Shown here piece by piece: positions 17,432-55,734 of a stretch of 64,000 bases of DNA. Both the position numbers and the translations under genes were made by a program. Source of the DNA: Deltaproteobacteria bacterium (lineage in GTDB: Bacteria; Myxococcota; Kuafuiibacteriia; Kuafuiibacteriales; Kuafuiibacteriaceae); the NCBI GenBank assembly GCA_040218735.1, contig JAVJQW010000040.1, positions 1 through 64,000 on the forward strand, written 5' to 3'. Numbering within the stretch: the stretch's first letter is position 1; each line of letters starts with the position of its first letter. A model generated the notes under the pieces. The model saw only the letters and a list, made by a program, of their open reading frames with translations. It did not search any database and was not told the origin of the DNA.

Positions 17432-18718
17432 TCACGGGACTCGGAGCTCCGCCGTCCACAGCTCCGCCGACGCAACGTCGTACAGCACCGTGTTCGGCGG
17501 CAGGAAGAGCATGCCTTCGACGTCACCGCGGGACAGGCGCATCGCGCTGCACTCGGTGCCGCTGTCGGGTTCGATGAAGCCCTGACGACCGTCCGCGCCG
17601 CCGTAGAGGACGCCGCGCGGGTGTGCGATCGCGTGGTCGATGTCGCGGAGGACGCTCTCGAAAGTCAGCACGGGCCGCCACGCGCCTTCGTCGTGCTCGA
17701 GGAGGTAACGAATCGCGTCCTTGTCGACCGCGAGGAGGAAGGTGCGTTCGCGGAGCGCGACCGCGTTCATCACCTTCACGCCGGTGCCGAGCTCTTCACT
17801 CACGGGCTCCAGGGAACGCTCCGTCCCTCGCCATCGCTCGATGAGATGGCGCTCGGACGTCACCAACACGCCGCCGCCCGAGGTCCACGTCACGCGGTAG
17901 CGTCCGCCGGGCACATCGGTCGTACCCAACGGCGTCCACGACCCTCCCGCGTACCGGGCGAGCGCTCCGGCGTCGGTGATCGCGTAGGCCGTGGTTCCGT
18001 CGGGGCCCGTGGCGATGTCGACGACCGGCGCGCCGAGGTGCAACGTCGCGCCGACGCTCAGGCGCTCCGGGTCGTCGAGCCGTCCGACGCGGCCGTCGTC
18101 GAACCCGACGAACGAACCCGCGAAGCGCGAGAGAGGGGAGGTCGAGGTGTCGATGGTCTGAAGGGCGCCGTCCCGGAGCCGGTGCAGCGCGAACCGGTCT
18201 GCGATGCGCACGGACCCGTCGGCGTCCGCAGCCATTCCTACGATGAGCTCGTCGAACGCCACGTCGATGCGCGCGACGACGTAGGTCGGGCAAGAGAACG
18301 CGAGTCCCGGCGCCGCGTCCGCGCTCGGCGTGAACGTCGACCACGCCGAGACCGCACCGCTATCGAAGCGCGCCGACCACGCCGCGTTCGCGGGCGGCAT
18401 TCGAACGTCTCCTTCGTCGAGTGGTCCGGGACGCACGAACAGCTCCGTCGGCGTGCCCGAGAACAGGCGAGCCTCGAGGTTGGCGGCGTCGACCTCGGAG
18501 AGCTGTGTCGCGAGCTGCACGGAGTCGCCCGGCTCCACGACGTAGTGCTCGGTGGTCATCGGCGCGCGCAGCGTGAGGAGCTGCGTGCCCCGATCGAAGT
18601 CCGGCGGCGGGTCGAACTCGATGCGCAGCCGTTCCACGCCGCCGTCGCTACAGCCGAGCGCCAGGACGATCGCTACCGCACCGCGCCGCACGGTGTTCCT
18701 CGTCCGGGGCGTTGGCAC
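17432..18718 (-). CDS. Hypothetical lipoprotein, probable beta-propeller C-terminus
   Basis: AIVLALGC lipobox; repeating beta-strand/GxW pattern. Confidence 0.7.
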   Translation of the reverse strand: MPTPRTRNTVRRGAVAIVLALGCSDGGVERLRIEFDPPPDFDRGTQLLTLRAPMTTEHYVVEPGDSVQLATQLSEVDAANLEARLFSGTPTELFVRPGPLDEGDVRMPPANAAWSARFDSGAVSAWSTFTPSADAAPGLAFSCPTYVVARIDVAFDELIVGMAADADGSVRIADRFALHRLRDGALQTIDTSTSPLSRFAGSFVGFDDGRVGRLDDPERLSVGATLHLGAPVVDIATGPDGTTAYAITDAGALARYAGGSWTPLGTTDVPGGRYRVTWTSGGGVLVTSERHLIERWRGTERSLEPVSEELGTGVKVMNAVALRERTFLLAVDKDAIRYLLEHDEGAWRPVLTFESVLRDIDHAIAHPRGVLYGGADGRQGFIEPDSGTECSAMRLSRGDVEGMLFLPPNTVLYDVASAELWTAELRVP

Positions 18719-50060: not shown

Positions 50061-51029
50061 TCAACTCCGGACGGCGGCGATGGTGTCGCGGATGAGCTGC
50101 GCCATCGCGTCGTTGCCCGCGCCCGAGAGGTGCAGGCCGTCGCCGCCGTCGGTGTTCGCGCCGGCGATCTGGGACCAGTCGGCCACGAACATGTTGGGGC
50201 GGCGCGCGGCTTCCTGCGCGATGACGTCGTTGATGGCGGCGTTGCCGTCGTAATACGACTGGCCGTAGCTCGCGCCGTTCGGGCGTTGGGTTTGGGTGTT
50301 GACCCACACCACCGTCGGCGGCGGGTTCAACGTGGCGAGCTGGTCCATCGTCTCCGGAACGAAGCGCGCGTAGTCGTTGTGGTTGCTGCCGAGCTCGAGG
50401 ACGAGCACGTCGGCGCCGGACTGCTCGGCCATCTGTCGGATCTCTGCGGGGGAGACGTGGTGGCCTGCGCCGCTGCCGTTGATCGCGCGTCCGCCTGCGG
50501 CGTCGATGGTGACGTCGGCGGCGCCCGCGCCGCGCAGAGCGGCTTCGGTCTGCCCGCGCGCGCCGACCATGAGGGAGTCGCCGATGACGTGGACGTCGAG
50601 GTTCTCGAGGCCCTGGCCCGGCGGGAGGTTGGACGCCGCGGTCGGTGCGGCGCTCGGCGCCGTCGTCGGCGCGGGGGCGCCGCCGCTGCCCCAGGAGGTC
50701 GGCTGCGGTCCGTTCGCGAAGCTCGCGCCCGGGAGCTGACCGGCCTGTCGGGGCGCCGCGTCCTGCCGGTGCATGTCGTTCGCGAGGTAGTCGATCAGCA
50801 GGCTCACGAGCGCCGCGGTGGCGAGCGCCTCGAAAAACTGCATCGGGTCCTGCTGCTGCTGAAGCCACGCCTGGATGTCGTCGTCGGGCGCCGCGCCGAT
50901 GGTCGCCTGATCCTCGGGTGCGAAGAGCTGCGGGAGCGTCTGCTCGGCCGGCAGCAGGTCGGCCCACGGCTGCGCGGGGCCCCATAACCAAGGGTTCAGG
51001 ACGCCGAAGTCATTCGCGCGCGAGACCAT
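50061..51029 (-). CDS. SGNH-hydrolase domain protein with low-complexity N-terminal extension
   Basis: VIGDSL, DAAGGR, LELGSN, DGLHL; no signal peptide. Confidence 0.8.
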   Translation of the reverse strand: MVSRANDFGVLNPWLWGPAQPWADLLPAEQTLPQLFAPEDQATIGAAPDDDIQAWLQQQQDPMQFFEALATAALVSLLIDYLANDMHRQDAAPRQAGQLPGASFANGPQPTSWGSGGAPAPTTAPSAAPTAASNLPPGQGLENLDVHVIGDSLMVGARGQTEAALRGAGAADVTIDAAGGRAINGSGAGHHVSPAEIRQMAEQSGADVLVLELGSNHNDYARFVPETMDQLATLNPPPTVVWVNTQTQRPNGASYGQSYYDGNAAINDVIAQEAARRPNMFVADWSQIAGANTDGGDGLHLSGAGNDAMAQLIRDTIAAVRS

Positions 51030-51084: not shown

Positions 51085-52098
51085 TCAGCGCCAGCCGTCG
51101 AGCGCGCCGGGCTTCACGCGGAGGTACAGCGCGCCGAACGTGTGGATCGCGCTGGTCGCCATCACCACGTGCTCCCCGACGTCGCGCCCCGCGGCGACCG
51201 CCTCGCGGAGGACGACGAACGGGTCCGCTGCGCCGAGGTGGCCGTAGCGGTCGAGCGTGCCGAAGGTTTGCTCGGGACCGAGGCCGATCGTCTCGCGCAC
51301 GGCGGCGATCACCTTGGGGGCGGTCTGGTTCGTGAGCAGGAAGTCGGGTCGCTCGATGCCGGCGGCTTCACACACGTTGCGGATCGAACGCTCGTAGCTC
51401 GTGATGTAGACCGGCTTGAAGACTTCGACGAACTGCTCGCGGTCCGTGCACTGACGGCAGTGCATCCCTTCGCGCAGCGTCTCTTCACTCGGCGGGTTCC
51501 TCGTCCCGCCGGCCGGGATGAAGAAGTAGTCGTTGAGGTGCGGGTACGTGACGAACGACGCCGGCCCGATCTCGATACCTCCGCCCGCCCGCACGACCGC
51601 AGCCGCGCCGCCGTCCGCGTGACCGAGGGCCTGCGCGGGGCGCGTGCGTTCGTAGTCGATCGACGGCGTCCATCGCTCGGCCGCGACGATCAGCGCCGCG
51701 CGCGGTGTCGACGCGCACCACTTCTTCGCGATGTCGAGCCCGGTGAGGCCGCCCGCGCAGCCCGCCGCGAGGTCGTAGCCGAAGCCGTCGCGGATGCCGA
51801 CCTCGTTCATGATCTTCGCGGCCATCGACCACGACGGGACGTAGTCGCGGCTGATGCTCACGCAGATGACGAGCCCAACGTCCTCGGGCGCGACCCCCGC
51901 GTGCTCCAGCGCGCGGCGCGCAGCGGCCGCGCCGATCGTGGAGGGGTGATCGTCGGGGCCGCCAATCGCCTTCTCGCCTAGGCCGAGCTCCTCGCGGAGG
52001 ACCTGCTCGTCGATGCCCGACCGGCGCGCGATCTCCGCGGCGGTCATCCGCCCCTCGGGGACGTGCACTCCGATACCCGCGATGCCGGCGCTCTCCAT
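51085..52098 (-). CDS. 3-oxoacyl-ACP synthase III-like (thiolase fold) with non-canonical active site
   Basis: IAGIGVHVP, YDLAAGCAGG, ADGGAAAVV, LTNQ, YGHLGAAD. Confidence 0.85.
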   Translation of the reverse strand: MESAGIAGIGVHVPEGRMTAAEIARRSGIDEQVLREELGLGEKAIGGPDDHPSTIGAAAARRALEHAGVAPEDVGLVICVSISRDYVPSWSMAAKIMNEVGIRDGFGYDLAAGCAGGLTGLDIAKKWCASTPRAALIVAAERWTPSIDYERTRPAQALGHADGGAAAVVRAGGGIEIGPASFVTYPHLNDYFFIPAGGTRNPPSEETLREGMHCRQCTDREQFVEVFKPVYITSYERSIRNVCEAAGIERPDFLLTNQTAPKVIAAVRETIGLGPEQTFGTLDRYGHLGAADPFVVLREAVAAGRDVGEHVVMATSAIHTFGALYLRVKPGALDGWR

Positions 52099-52134: not shown

Positions 52135-53388
52135 TCACGCGCCGCCGAAGACACCTTCGGCGAGTGTCCCGGCGCGTTCCATGCGCGGGTGCGCGTCGAC
52201 CTCGCCGAGCAGCGCCTCGGAGGCGAGGACGGTGTCGAGCTCGAGTGTGTTCTTGATGCGCACGATGCGAGCGTCGGCGGGCGCGAGCCCGACGAGCGAC
52301 CTCAGCGCGAGGTCGACCGCGATGCGTTCGGACGGCGCGACCACCGGGAGGCGCCCGGCTTCGATCACCGTCGAGCCGACGACGTTGGTGTACGTCGTCT
52401 TCCAGTCGATCGCTTCGAACAGCCGGTTGGTGATCACGTCGACGAGGCCCACGCCGATCGCGTTGCCGTGGCTCGCTTCGGTGAGTCGCGTGACGACGAT
52501 GCGTTCGATGAACGGCGCGAGCGCGCCGCGGACCGCGCCCTGTTTGCGGTCGGCGACGAGCGCGTCGAAGCCGGCACCGCTGATGTCCTTGCCCATCTCC
52601 TCGATCACGAGGACGTCGAGGCGGTCGAAGAGGAGGCGCCCCATCATCTGGCGGGCGACCTCGAGGAGCTCCGGCTCGCGGTCGAACATCCGCGCGCCCG
52701 CGAGCACCTCCGCGTCGGCGATGTGTCCGTAGGCGTCCTCGACGAGCGCGACGCCGAACAGGAACGGCGTCGCCGCGACGATCGTCTTCGCGACCTCTTC
52801 GAGGACGCCACAGAACGCGTCGGCCGGGACGTTCCCGTGCAGCGTCGACGCGCTCATGCGTTTGCCGGTCCCGACCGCGAGCATCTTCACGAGCCCGCTC
52901 TCGACGCGGCCGTGGAAGTGCGTGTGCGGTTTGATGCGGTTGACGAGGACGATGCCGTCGGCGTCGAGCGCCTCCGCGCCGACGTGTACGTCGAGGCCGC
53001 GCACCTGGCCGACGACCTTCGTGTCCATCGTGGCGCGGACCGGCGCGCCGACGGAGACCTCGTCGACGCCGAGCGCGGCGAGCACTTCGATCTGGCCGTC
53101 CGCGGTCGCGGCGCCGTGGGTGCCCATCGCGGGGAAGACAAACGGCTCGGCACCGGCGCGTTTCAGCTGTTCGACGACGGCGCCGACGATCGAAGCGATG
53201 CCCGGGATGCCGCGGCTGCCCACGCCGACGGCGATACGTCCTGCGGCCTTCGGCTGCAGCGCGCCGATCTGCTCGGCGATGTGCCGCGCCGGATCTTCGA
53301 GCTCACGGCGTTCGAACGTCTGACGCACCGAGGCCATGCGCGGCAGCGCGCGCGGCGCGCCCCAGTCGAGATCGAGATCGGCGAACAC
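52135..53388 (-). CDS. LarA-like (lactate racemase domain / DUF2088-type) protein
   Basis: IAVGVGSRGI, PAMGTHG, NRIKPHT.F.G..ESGLVKM.AVG.GK, GKDISGAG.D, SHGNAIG.G. Confidence 0.8.
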   Translation of the reverse strand: MFADLDLDWGAPRALPRMASVRQTFERRELEDPARHIAEQIGALQPKAAGRIAVGVGSRGIPGIASIVGAVVEQLKRAGAEPFVFPAMGTHGAATADGQIEVLAALGVDEVSVGAPVRATMDTKVVGQVRGLDVHVGAEALDADGIVLVNRIKPHTHFHGRVESGLVKMLAVGTGKRMSASTLHGNVPADAFCGVLEEVAKTIVAATPFLFGVALVEDAYGHIADAEVLAGARMFDREPELLEVARQMMGRLLFDRLDVLVIEEMGKDISGAGFDALVADRKQGAVRGALAPFIERIVVTRLTEASHGNAIGVGLVDVITNRLFEAIDWKTTYTNVVGSTVIEAGRLPVVAPSERIAVDLALRSLVGLAPADARIVRIKNTLELDTVLASEALLGEVDAHPRMERAGTLAEGVFGGA

Positions 53389-53390
53389 GG

Positions 53391-53924
53391 CTACAGCTCT
53401 AACAGGCGTTCGACCCCTTCGACGATCTGCTCGGCGCGTCGTTCGAGGAGCGCGTCGGAGACGTTCTGGATCGGGTGGTCGAGGACGATGCGCGGGAACG
53501 TCGCCTCGGGGCGCCAGTGGGAGAGGTGGCGCTCGAGCACGTCGACGAACGGCTCCGTCACGACGACGACCGCCGCTGCGCCTTTCAGGTGAAGTTGAAC
53601 CGCGTCGAGCGAACCGCCCGCTGAGCAGCTCCCTCAGTCGAAGACGCCGAGGATCAGGAGGCCCTGCTCCTCGGCGATGCGCTCCAGGGTGTGGTCGCTC
53701 TCGCGACGGGTGATGCGCGCCTTCTTCGTGAGCCCGGTGATCTTCACGCCGCGCGCTTCGAGGCGGCGGCCGACGTCGTCCAGGATGCGGCGCGAGTTGG
53801 GTTTGCCGGAGTCGACGAAGTGCACCTCGCGGGTGTTCTTCGGCGTGTGAATCGGGAGCGGACGCGGGCGCGGCGTGGGGTTCGGATCGATCAGGATCTC
53901 ACACTGCGGTTCGAAGTCGCGCAT
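53391..53924 (-). CDS. UGSC-family selenoprotein, 177 aa, Sec at TGA 53634..53636
   Basis: ..LILGVFD-TGA-GSCSAGGSLDAVQLHLKGAAAVVVVTEPFVD..RIVLDHPIQN..RRAEQIVEGVERLLEL*; the frame stays open to a TAG 2 nt before the next gene; DSGKPNS motif upstream. Confidence 0.88.
53597..53631 (-). promoter_or_regulatory. Bacterial SECIS-like hairpin
   Basis: After the UGA: lower stem GAGCUGC/GCGGUUC, upper stem CGGGC/GCUCG, apical GGUUC starting at +19. Confidence 0.75.
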
Positions 53925-53931
53925 CAGCAGG

Positions 53932-54969
53932 TCACCGAGTCCGGTCCATGATGAAGACCTCCGCGTCCGGTCGCAACTCGACGGCGTGGGTGATGTTGCC
54001 GACCCACCCCGGGATCACCGCGGAGAACTTCCCCGCGGCGCCGCCGGACTCGAGGAACGTGAGCTGCTCGTAGGACCGCAGCGGCGAGCGCGGCGCTTCG
54101 GGGTCGACGGACATCCGTGGATCCGGATCGGCGGGGACCCGACCGAGTCGAACCAGCTCCGGGCCGGGGCGCTTCGAGTGTTCGAAGACGAAACGCCGCG
54201 CGTCGTCGCGATCGAAGGCCTCGCAGATCAGGCTCGCGTGCTCGGGTGCGAGCACGACGGTGTAGCCGCCCGTCTGCCAGTAGAAGTTGGTGGAGCCGTA
54301 GTGGGCGATCGTCCCGGCGATCGTCTCGAGGAGTATCTCGGCGCTCGACGCGTAGTGGTTGTTGACGCTGTTCGGCCCCTCCGCGGCGGTGATGGTGATC
54401 GCGGATTGCTCGGGGTCGAGGCCGAACTGATCGTGATACCGCGTCCACCGCGTCTGTTCGTGCTCCGCGACGCAGAACGAGATGCGCCCCGGGTGACCCA
54501 GCACGCCGAATTCTTCGAGGATGCCGCCGGCGCGCCCGCAGAAGTGACGCACCATGTTCGCGAAGCGCCCGACGGTGAGGTTGATGCGCGCGCTGCCGCC
54601 GAGGGTGTTCGCGCCGCTCGCGAAGCCGAGCTCTTGGACGATCGGCCCGCTGACGATCACCAACACCGCGCACCCGCCGGTCGTGACGGCGACGCCGTTG
54701 ATGTTGAAGCTCGGCGCGAGCAACAGCCGAGTGAGCGGGCGTAGCACCGGCGCGTATTCGTCGCGGCACCCAGCCATCACGGCGATCGCCGCGACCTGGA
54801 TCGCGCGCACTTCGAGCCCGTAGTCGTCGAGCTCGACGAGGGTCTCGGTCGCCGACCACCCCAGCGCCGCGAGCATCGATTCGACGCGGCTCCCGTAGGG
54901 CGGGACGACCGGGAGGCCGTCGCTCCACCCGCGTTCGAAGCAGGCTTCGATGTCGTTGTCGAGCGCCAC
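53932..54969 (-). CDS. Conserved GWxDGLPVVPP protein (usual neighbour of UGSC proteins)
   Basis: RGWSDGLPVVPP, AVMAGC..EY.PVL, VTTG...LVIVSGPI, N.TVGR, LGHPG..SFCVAE; GTG start. Confidence 0.82.
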   Translation of the reverse strand: MALDNDIEACFERGWSDGLPVVPPYGSRVESMLAALGWSATETLVELDDYGLEVRAIQVAAIAVMAGCRDEYAPVLRPLTRLLLAPSFNINGVAVTTGGCAVLVIVSGPIVQELGFASGANTLGGSARINLTVGRFANMVRHFCGRAGGILEEFGVLGHPGRISFCVAEHEQTRWTRYHDQFGLDPEQSAITITAAEGPNSVNNHYASSAEILLETIAGTIAHYGSTNFYWQTGGYTVVLAPEHASLICEAFDRDDARRFVFEHSKRPGPELVRLGRVPADPDPRMSVDPEAPRSPLRSYEQLTFLESGGAAGKFSAVIPGWVGNITHAVELRPDAEVFIMDRTR

Positions 54970-55041: not shown

Positions 55042-55734
55042 ATGCGCACCGTGACGATCGCCGACCGCTTCCGAGGCCCGCCCGACTCTGCAAACGGCGG
55101 GTATGCGTGCGGCGTGGTCGCTGCGGCGCTCGAGACGTCCGAGCCCGTGCAGGTCACGCTGCGGAGCCCGCCTCCGTTGGATACGCCGCTGTCGATCGTC
55201 GAGGTCGAGGGCGGTGTTGAGATGAAACACGGTGAGACAGTCGTCGCCGAAGGGCGTACGAGCACGCTCGATCTCGAGGTGCCGGCGGCCGTGGATCGCG
55301 CGACGGCCGAGGTCGCGCAGAAGAACTTCGTCGGGTTCGAGAACCACTTCCTCCCGACGTGTTTTGTGTGCGGAACGAAGCACGAGCAAGACGGCTTGCG
55401 CATCTTCCCCGGGCGCGTCGAAGGGCGCGAGCTCGCGGCGGCTCCGTGGGATCCGACGCCGGACCTCTACGAAGGCGGGCGCATCGCGTCGGTGTTCATG
55501 TGGTCGGCGCTGGACTGCCCGTCGTGCTTCGGCGCGTTCATCACCGAGCCGGTGCTGCTCGGACGACTCGTCGCGCAGATCGACGAGCGGCCGCCCCAGG
55601 GGGAGAAGCTCGTCGCGGTGGGGTGGCCCATCGAGCGCGACGGGCGAAAGATCTTCGCGGGCTCGGCGATCTTCGGCGAGGACGGTCGGGTCTTGGGGAA
55701 GGCGTTCGCGACCTGGATCGCGTTCAAGCGCTGA
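55042..55734 (+). CDS. Double hotdog-fold thioesterase-like protein
   Basis: RFRGPPDSANGGYACG, VTLRSPPPLD, CFVCG, WSALDCP, GRKIFAGSA. Confidence 0.85.
   Translation: MRTVTIADRFRGPPDSANGGYACGVVAAALETSEPVQVTLRSPPPLDTPLSIVEVEGGVEMKHGETVVAEGRTSTLDLEVPAAVDRATAEVAQKNFVGFENHFLPTCFVCGTKHEQDGLRIFPGRVEGRELAAAPWDPTPDLYEGGRIASVFMWSALDCPSCFGAFITEPVLLGRLVAQIDERPPQGEKLVAVGWPIERDGRKIFAGSAIFGEDGRVLGKAFATWIAFKR

Follow-up and report, generated by a model that had tools for sequence, protein, structure and literature searches.

In the 64,000-nucleotide (nt) stretch of DNA analysed here (the window; contig JAVJQW010000040.1, assembly GCA_040218735.1), the minus strand from 53924 to 53391 very probably encodes a 177-amino-acid (aa) selenoprotein of the UGSC family, in which UGA at codon 97 would be read as selenocysteine (Sec) by way of a conserved hairpin lying just behind it. 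The Sec residue would have a redox role, and the protein would act together with the product of the gene directly upstream. The Global Ocean Sampling (GOS) analysis of Zhang and Gladyshev described UGSC-containing proteins, which have a UxxC motif and no known function, as a major family of selenoproteins predicted in aquatic metagenomes and counted 255 Sec and 21 Cys forms (PMC2398784), and a 2026 review still counts them as uncharacterised (PMC13188914). Both sources agree with the preliminary description of this DNA, which had spoken of a UxxC motif and no established function.

Reading frame and the TGA codon

The open reading frame (ORF) listing gives a 96-aa ORF on the minus strand, from ATG 53924 to TGA 53636-53634. 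Once this TGA is translated as U, the frame continues through 80 sense codons to TAG 53393-53391, and the translation has 177 residues, with D96-U97-G98-S99-C100 in the context ...GVFD-U-GSC-SAGGSLDAV... The GTG (53388) of the downstream gene sits 2 nt past the TAG of the selenoprotein gene, the read-through frame thus filling the gap between its neighbours. The preliminary description had reported the 96-aa ORF ending at TGA and the 80 further sense codons reaching a TAG 2 nt short of the next gene, and both were recovered here at these coordinates. ORF calling with translation table 11 gives the 96-aa ORF and a separate ORF of 56 aa (GTG 53561 to 53391) at this locus, and standard callers almost certainly split or truncate the selenoprotein gene. 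When the entire assembly (11.6 Mb in 70 contigs, 96.5% complete) was searched in six frames, a single UGSC locus was found, scoring 82.9 bits and with one TGA inside.

Homologs were surveyed in a 401-genome sample of the phylum, with matches counted at E<=0.001 and over the cut-off, and in metagenomes, where an alignment of the upstream partner protein (A1) was used because the single partner protein, searched against genome contigs, gave one locus. Together, the 80 metagenome loci fetched with A1 and the one locus from genome contigs make up the 81 related loci referred to below. UGSC matches at E<=0.001 turned up in 15 genomes of the phylum sample, and 13 genomes gave at least one match over the cut-off; one TGA lay inside 13 of the 16 over-cut-off matches. 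The three TGA-free matches comprised two genes in a single genome (G212) and one partial C-terminal match; a motif search recovered one of the two genes of G212, which has a Cys codon at the Sec column. The motif D-U-G-S-C-[TS]-S-[CWG] was present in all 11 phylum loci checked besides that of the window.

In 76 of the 81 related loci, tblastn showed the partner gene to be followed directly by a UGSC-like gene. Three of these contigs end before the motif, which leaves 73 genes for the count at the Sec column: 70 carry TGA (D-U-G-S-C-S) and three carry TGC or TGT (D-C-G-S-C-S). Separate tblastn searches with the two halves of the window protein, N-terminal and C-terminal, gave matches in one and the same frame in 68 of the 73 loci (65 TGA, 3 Cys). 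Similarity on both sides of the TGA and either Sec or Cys at its column in homologs, which the preliminary description had proposed looking for, were therefore found in the metagenome relatives and, in the form of matches with one internal TGA, in the phylum sample. The three Cys members (L075, L095 and L109, all from metagenomes) read D-C-G-S-C-S-A-S-S-A-[VI]-D, have lost the hairpin described below, and are natural Sec-to-Cys conversions.

Contigs assembled from three DNA runs, which belong to three different studies, span positions 53300-54100 with 10 to 27 differences, none of which falls between 53593 and 53666, the segment that contains the TGA and the hairpin. Nine differences upstream of the TGA are synonymous and none is non-synonymous; downstream of it, in the read-through frame, 10 are synonymous and four non-synonymous. 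Reads with TGC or TGG at codon 97 had been named in the preliminary description as something that would refute its proposal; the contigs of all three runs keep TGA. The related strain represented in run X6 has TGA in place of the TAG stop (53391-53393), so that its gene would contain one UGA for Sec and one for termination.

Hairpin downstream of the UGA and the selenocysteine machinery

The window sequence that follows the TGA can form a stem in which nt 17-21 pair with nt 27-31 (the U of UGA being nt 1), closed by the loop G22-G23-U24-U25-C26, which begins 19 nt after the UGA. A second, lower stem is possible, and the two-stem fold has a free energy of -16.6 kcal/mol over 45 nt (Table 1). 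A two-stem hairpin with its apical loop at +19 had already been noticed in the preliminary description, and comparison with relatives bears it out as a conserved and covarying element at that position. The comparison used the 66 nt starting at the TGA from 45 distinct relatives and the window (46 sequences). Conservation is much higher in the first 33 nt than in the 33 that follow. Synonymous variation is suppressed at codons +4 to +10 behind the TGA: at +4 to +8 and at +10 a single codon accounts for 92-100% of sequences, as against 31-72% for the commonest codon at downstream sites of four- or six-fold degeneracy. Codon +9 is the exception, its variable base being the one opposite position 18 in the stem.

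In all 46 distinct TGA sequences every cell of the core stem (17-21/27-31) is paired (100%), as are 97.8% of the 322 cells of the extended stem (15-21/27-33); shifting the 3' side by 1-3 columns lowers the latter figure to 24-41%. None of 500 shuffles reached the observed pairing or covariation score. Compensatory changes were seen at 18:30, where G:C or G:U is replaced by C:G in two sequences, and at 21:27, where C:G is replaced by U:A, also in two sequences; a count of two such pairs was reached in 6 of 500 shuffles. Since the sequences are related to one another, these shuffle figures are not probabilities. Unaided, RNAalifold returned a consensus with the same stem, 17-21/27-31, and a 5-nt loop. 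The loop consensus is [A/G/C]-G-U-[U/G]-C, in which G23 and U24 are invariant. In the three Cys-encoding relatives, three, four and five of the seven pairs are broken and the loop is AGCGC. For the lower stem (6-12/34-40), the share of paired cells among relatives is only 55.9%, and some covariation is seen at pairs 6:40 and 9:37. On the strength of this alignment, the hairpin is a conserved, covarying structure and the putative Sec insertion sequence (SECIS) element. Searched on both strands of the window, the exact geometry (stem 17-21/27-31 with G23 and U24) occurs at three of 1260 TGA trinucleotides, of which the TGA of the UGSC gene alone ends an ORF; the other two, at 17977 (+) and 63232 (-), were set aside as chance matches.

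The SECIS of Escherichia coli fdhF is the closest point of reference. Its upper stem-loop occupies nt 15-31, 11 nt from the UGA, and carries G23 and U24 in the loop (PMC8659212); like the window hairpin it lies directly 3' of the UGA, within the coding sequence (CDS), and presents the same two loop bases. The bulged U17 of the fdhF element is not evident in the UGSC hairpin, in which 15-21/27-33 is continuous in most relatives. The fdhF element is a SelB-binding hairpin; the window hairpin, a candidate for such binding, has a stem of 5 bp and matches no Rfam model.

The same genome encodes the factors that such an element would need. The genes selA (493 bits), selB (341 bits) and selD (326 bits) all score over the curated cut-offs, and a tRNA-Sec (selC) was found with 70.4 bits, where the gathering score is 47, and also by ARAGORN as tRNA-SeC with anticodon tca; the presence of selA, selB, selC and selD, on which the preliminary description had made its proposal depend, is thereby established. 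The selD gene (contig C18:152317-153240 on the minus strand, locus L010) is itself a selenoprotein gene, with its own in-frame TGA in S-G-G-U-A-A-K. The hairpin that follows its UGA has the loop CGGGU, in which G23-U24 are as far from the UGA as they are in the UGSC hairpin. In the UGSC operon TGA also serves as an ordinary stop, and the code is standard, because the partner gene ends in TGA (53934-53932), 7 nt ahead of the ATG of the selenoprotein gene.

Family, predicted fold and neighbouring genes

Against the Pfam UGSC profile PF24696 the read-through protein scores 90.7 bits (cut-off 25), with residues 26-175 aligned to positions 21-170 of the 172 in the profile, and the match runs across the TGA codon. 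All 28 sequences of the subfamily alignment A3, which consists of the window selenoprotein and 27 metagenome relatives, match the same profile. The window protein is 34-49% identical to these relatives, with conserved residues on both sides of U97, and the D-U-G-S-C columns are invariant. The motif of the subfamily is DUGSCS-x-G-x-S-L-D, in which D-U-G-S-C is followed by S-[SA]-G-[SG]-S-L-D, and the window has U-G-S-C-S-A-G-G-S. Canonical UGSC proteins (PF24696, NF041046 and the GOS set) carry Sec in the same column of D-U-G-S-C, match over the whole length and share the later motif H-P-[IMT]-Q; Sec outnumbers Cys in both groups, with 70 to 3 in the window subfamily beside the GOS count (PMC2398784). 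In contrast, the canonical motif runs on as T-S-C-S-V-H-D, while that of the window subfamily lacks the third Cys, which would lie three residues past U-G-S-C, where canonical relatives in the phylum have C, W or G. The genes alongside differ as well: partner proteins of the subfamily are 49-61% identical among themselves and only 27-35% identical, over the main aligned segment, to those found beside canonical UGSC genes, and a FabH-like neighbour occurs in 61 of the 81 subfamily loci and in none of 20 phylum loci, for which the flanks covered are about 1.5 kb. Judged by sequence, the window gene is a new, divergent subfamily member of the already known UGSC family.

At the N-terminus of A3 (window residues 8-18) there is a conserved proline-rich tail, L-V-D-P-I-P-R-P. 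Ahead of it relatives often carry S-C-G-D-x-S-C-E, a segment from which just one Cys (C8) is retained in the window protein. The tail, which has low confidence in the structural model, might serve as a docking segment.

With A3 as input, AlphaFold2 predicted a regular (beta-alpha)5 domain with a predicted local distance difference test score (pLDDT) of 92.7 and a predicted template modelling score (pTM) of 0.85. In the model, U97 lies between strand 3 (89-95) and helix 3 (98-113), with C100 inside the opening turn of that helix. The best Foldseek matches in the PDB were flavodoxins, flavin mononucleotide (FMN) reductases, and receiver and Toll/interleukin-1 receptor (TIR) domains (E from 1.4e-4, template modelling score (TM) 0.43-0.48), and thioredoxin was absent from the top 50. 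The fold is thus predicted to be flavodoxin-like and not thioredoxin-like. The thioredoxin-like fold proposed for UGSC proteins in the GOS paper (PMC2398784) is not supported by this model, which is (beta-alpha)5 and has no thioredoxin among its top 50 matches. Selenoproteins of the thioredoxin fold with UxxC or CxxU motifs (thioredoxin-, peroxiredoxin- and DsbA-like) have their U-x-x-C at a strand-to-helix junction, as in the window model, and differ in overall fold from the (beta-alpha)5, flavodoxin-like architecture predicted here. Such a placement of U-x-x-C is the usual layout of redox-active dithiol or selenol-thiol sites, and a redox role of the Sec97-Cys100 pair is what the modelled geometry suggests.

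A search of PDB sequences with the selenoprotein returned no match. The U-x-x-C motif is also common to the GrdB and PrdB subunits of glycine, sarcosine and betaine reductase and of D-proline reductase, with which UGSC proteins can be compared by analogy only. Selenoprotein B subunits of the Grd and Prd systems work with a larger companion subunit that is encoded beside them. The Pfam family GRDB matched none of the 28 A3 sequences at E<=10, and no Grd or Prd entry appeared in the top 50 Foldseek matches; PrdB is listed as a UxxC protein in the GOS table (PMC2398784).

Table 1. Coordinates of the selenoprotein gene, its signals and the neighbouring genes in the window
Feature	Position	Strand	Details
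UGSC-family selenoprotein, complete read-through CDS	53391..53924	-	177 aa, Sec = residue 97, TAG stop included
Putative Sec-UGA, codon 97, D-U-G-S-C motif	53634..53636	-	TGA column in relatives; 3 DNA runs
Core SECIS stem-loop	53606..53620	-	mRNA nt 17-31, 5-bp stem, loop GGUUC, G23=53614, U24=53613
Extended two-stem form	53597..53631	-	lower stem nt 6-12/34-40 around core hairpin
Unnamed partner gene, 345 aa	53932..54969	-	GTG 54969 start (TTG 55011 alternative); TGA stop
Nickel-pincer-cofactor-dependent isomerase group 22 (LarA-like)	52135..53388	-	NCBIfam NF052515, 453.1 bits, cut-off 400
FabH-like (KAS III superfamily) gene	51085..52098	-	Pfam ACP_syn_III and ACP_syn_III_C
Weak GDSL-like ORF, last of apparent operon	50061..51029	-	GDSL/SGNH hydrolase 28.1 bits, cut-off 32.9, sub-threshold

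The apparent operon is ordered partner, UGSC, isomerase, FabH-like gene and GDSL-like ORF (Table 1). The partner protein matches no family in Pfam or NCBIfam and no PDB sequence. Scoring of 8000 candidates gave 1468 homologs at E<=0.001; identity is 49-61% for the best of them, and any that bear a name are called 'hypothetical protein'. Named relatives are found in Denitratisoma, Pandoraea, Nocardia and Phytohabitans; the best 120 matches of near-equal length measure 302-375 aa. In the phylum sample, tblastn found the partner adjoining the UGSC gene in 17 of 20 loci. Its invariant residues include C10, C68, H159, H205 and H244, and its predicted structure has a pLDDT of 87.4. Class I fumarate hydratase, the best Foldseek match, was considered for the fold and rejected, which leaves the partner with no convincing solved relative, as its E-value of 8.5e-5 goes with a TM of only 0.31 and a root-mean-square deviation of 16.6; likewise, a wide VIA-align search with the partner model gave no chain at Z 5, the best reaching 4.5 and fumarate hydratase 4.2 over 189 residues. 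No fusion of partner and UGSC protein was found among longer proteins (605-2000 aa), and the two genes lie in different frames in related loci. A 429-aa ESM Atlas cluster with PF24696 in 41% of its members (score 0.88) is a possible fusion lead only, and the GOS paper mentions an occasional fusion of UGSC to a domain called 'Unknown_1' (PMC2398784).

The LarA-like isomerase gene stands between the UGSC and FabH-like genes in the window and in none of the 81 related loci (tblastn); it is therefore a local insertion outside the conserved unit and was rejected as a component of the system. The FabH-like protein scores 188.7 bits against NCBIfam NF005308, below the cut-off of 315; a kinship with GrdC, as a FabH-like protein of glycine reductase, was considered, and the NCBIfam search listed no Grd family for it. 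Its homologs conserve Cys114 (60 of 60 aligned), Asn257-Gln258 (57 of 57) and His287 (56 of 56), Asn257 and His287 presumably being swapped relative to the Cys-His-Asn triad of FabH. With UGSC in 76, the FabH-like gene in 61 and the isomerase in none of the 81 loci, the conserved unit consists of partner and UGSC, usually with FabH-like. Divergently oriented beside the operon is a 230-aa ORF (55042-55734, plus strand) that belongs to no Pfam or NCBIfam family; a homolog of it, 48% identical, lies near the partner in one related locus only (L045).

Weighing the readings and what the locus means

The simplest alternative is that the TGA is a true stop, leaving a 96-aa protein followed by the separate 56-aa ORF or by a non-coding spacer. 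Table 11 calling yields exactly these two ORFs and the gene just upstream does stop at TGA, yet this account is very improbable, as the Pfam UGSC domain extends across the codon, a search with only the C-terminal half leads to the same downstream genes, in the frame of the N-terminal half (the 68 loci counted above), the three Cys relatives read straight through, and strain variation past the TGA is mostly synonymous in the read-through frame. A smaller chance still attaches to a pseudogene or an assembly error in which a Cys codon was mutated to, or misread as, TGA. The codon is one base away from TGC and TGT, and Cys forms of the family do exist (3 of 73, and the two TGA-free genes in G212). 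Against this, TGA is the majority state in relatives (70 of 73), contigs from three other studies are the same at 53634-53636, the Sec machinery is complete, and the hairpin is intact in the window and lost precisely in the Cys forms. Hardly any more room is left for read-through with Trp, Cys or Gly (near-cognate or recoded) in place of Sec. Bacteria do show near-cognate read-through of UGA at a low level. However, the partner in the same operon stops at TGA under a standard code, a SelB-type hairpin with G23-U24 covaries with the TGA and vanishes with Cys, and the relatives without TGA carry Cys, the usual counterpart of Sec.

Several observations weigh against the selenoprotein that we propose. 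The NCBIfam model NF041046 ('UGSC family (seleno)protein') is matched over positions 3-146 of 147 with 79.9 bits, below its curated cut-off of 125; all eight subfamily relatives tried likewise scored under 125 (66.4-90.1 bits), and by sequence the window gene is a relative of the NF041046 equivalog set and, by the NCBI threshold, not a member of it. The third Cys of the canonical U-G-S-C-T-S-C is missing from the window protein. Its upper stem has just 5 bp, because A15/C33 and G16/A32 are unpaired (42-43 of the 46 sequences pair at those two positions). A competing hairpin in the window (1-4/28-31 with 6-14/18-26), which includes the UGA, has -19.0 kcal/mol over 45 nt, a gain in stability of 2.4 kcal/mol; with a z-score of -0.87, the 67-nt fold shows no unusual stability; and Rfam, searched over 53300-54000 at E<=10, gave no relevant family, its only output being two chance matches below threshold on the opposite strand. 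A metatranscriptome library (run X19) contributed three short contigs on the stretch, including one of 151 nt across the TGA that may be DNA-derived and hints at transcription weakly at best. Finally, it is gene order that points to a physical partnership of the partner and UGSC proteins. The hairpin is nevertheless judged real because the evidence for it is comparative and does not come from a single-sequence fold. The minimum-free-energy hairpin of the single sequence, when put to the same comparison, was rejected: it showed no compensatory change, and its 91.3% pairing was reached by 500 of 500 shuffles.

For the 177-aa UGSC selenoprotein, we infer Sec insertion from the known bacterial Sec pathway. 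SelB with Sec-tRNA(Sec) would be held on the mRNA by the small hairpin as the ribosome meets the UGA at codon 97; the stem would begin 13 nt past the UGA, with G23 and U24 presented by the loop, and after Sec had been inserted translation would go on for 80 codons. The Sec97-Cys100 pair may then cycle between the selenol/thiol and the selenenylsulfide state, and the protein would most likely form an enzyme of two parts with the ~340-aa upstream partner and be its redox-active subunit; in the subfamily this pair would often be joined by the FabH-like enzyme. A more speculative and rather unlikely extension, by analogy, is that UGSC protein, partner and FabH-like protein form one undescribed selenium-dependent enzyme system, in which the partner would bind or activate a substrate, Sec97-Cys100 would reduce it and the product would be passed as a thioester to the FabH-like cysteine, loosely like the B, A and C proteins of glycine reductase.

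For a selenoprotein specialist there is nothing surprising in the locus. It is an ordinary though correct detection, and one of a known family, since UGSC has been in print since 2008 and Pfam and NCBIfam models exist for it. What is new is the definition of the subfamily with its NF041046 scores below the cut-off, the minimal SECIS supported by covariation and lost in the Cys forms, and the predicted flavodoxin-like fold together with the FabH-like association. Genes of this subfamily are likely under-annotated in public genomes, because they fall below the NCBIfam model that rescues UGSC selenoproteins. As an example the locus is clean: the Sec machinery is complete, the minimal SECIS is well defined and the partner gene is fixed. 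The natural Cys forms L075, L095 and L109 could stand in as expression-friendly versions of the protein. UGSC proteins are among the most abundant predicted selenoprotein families of aquatic metagenomes and their function is still missing (PMC2398784, PMC13188914); for this family, the subfamily-specific FabH-like neighbour and the partner provide concrete proteins for co-expression and assay.

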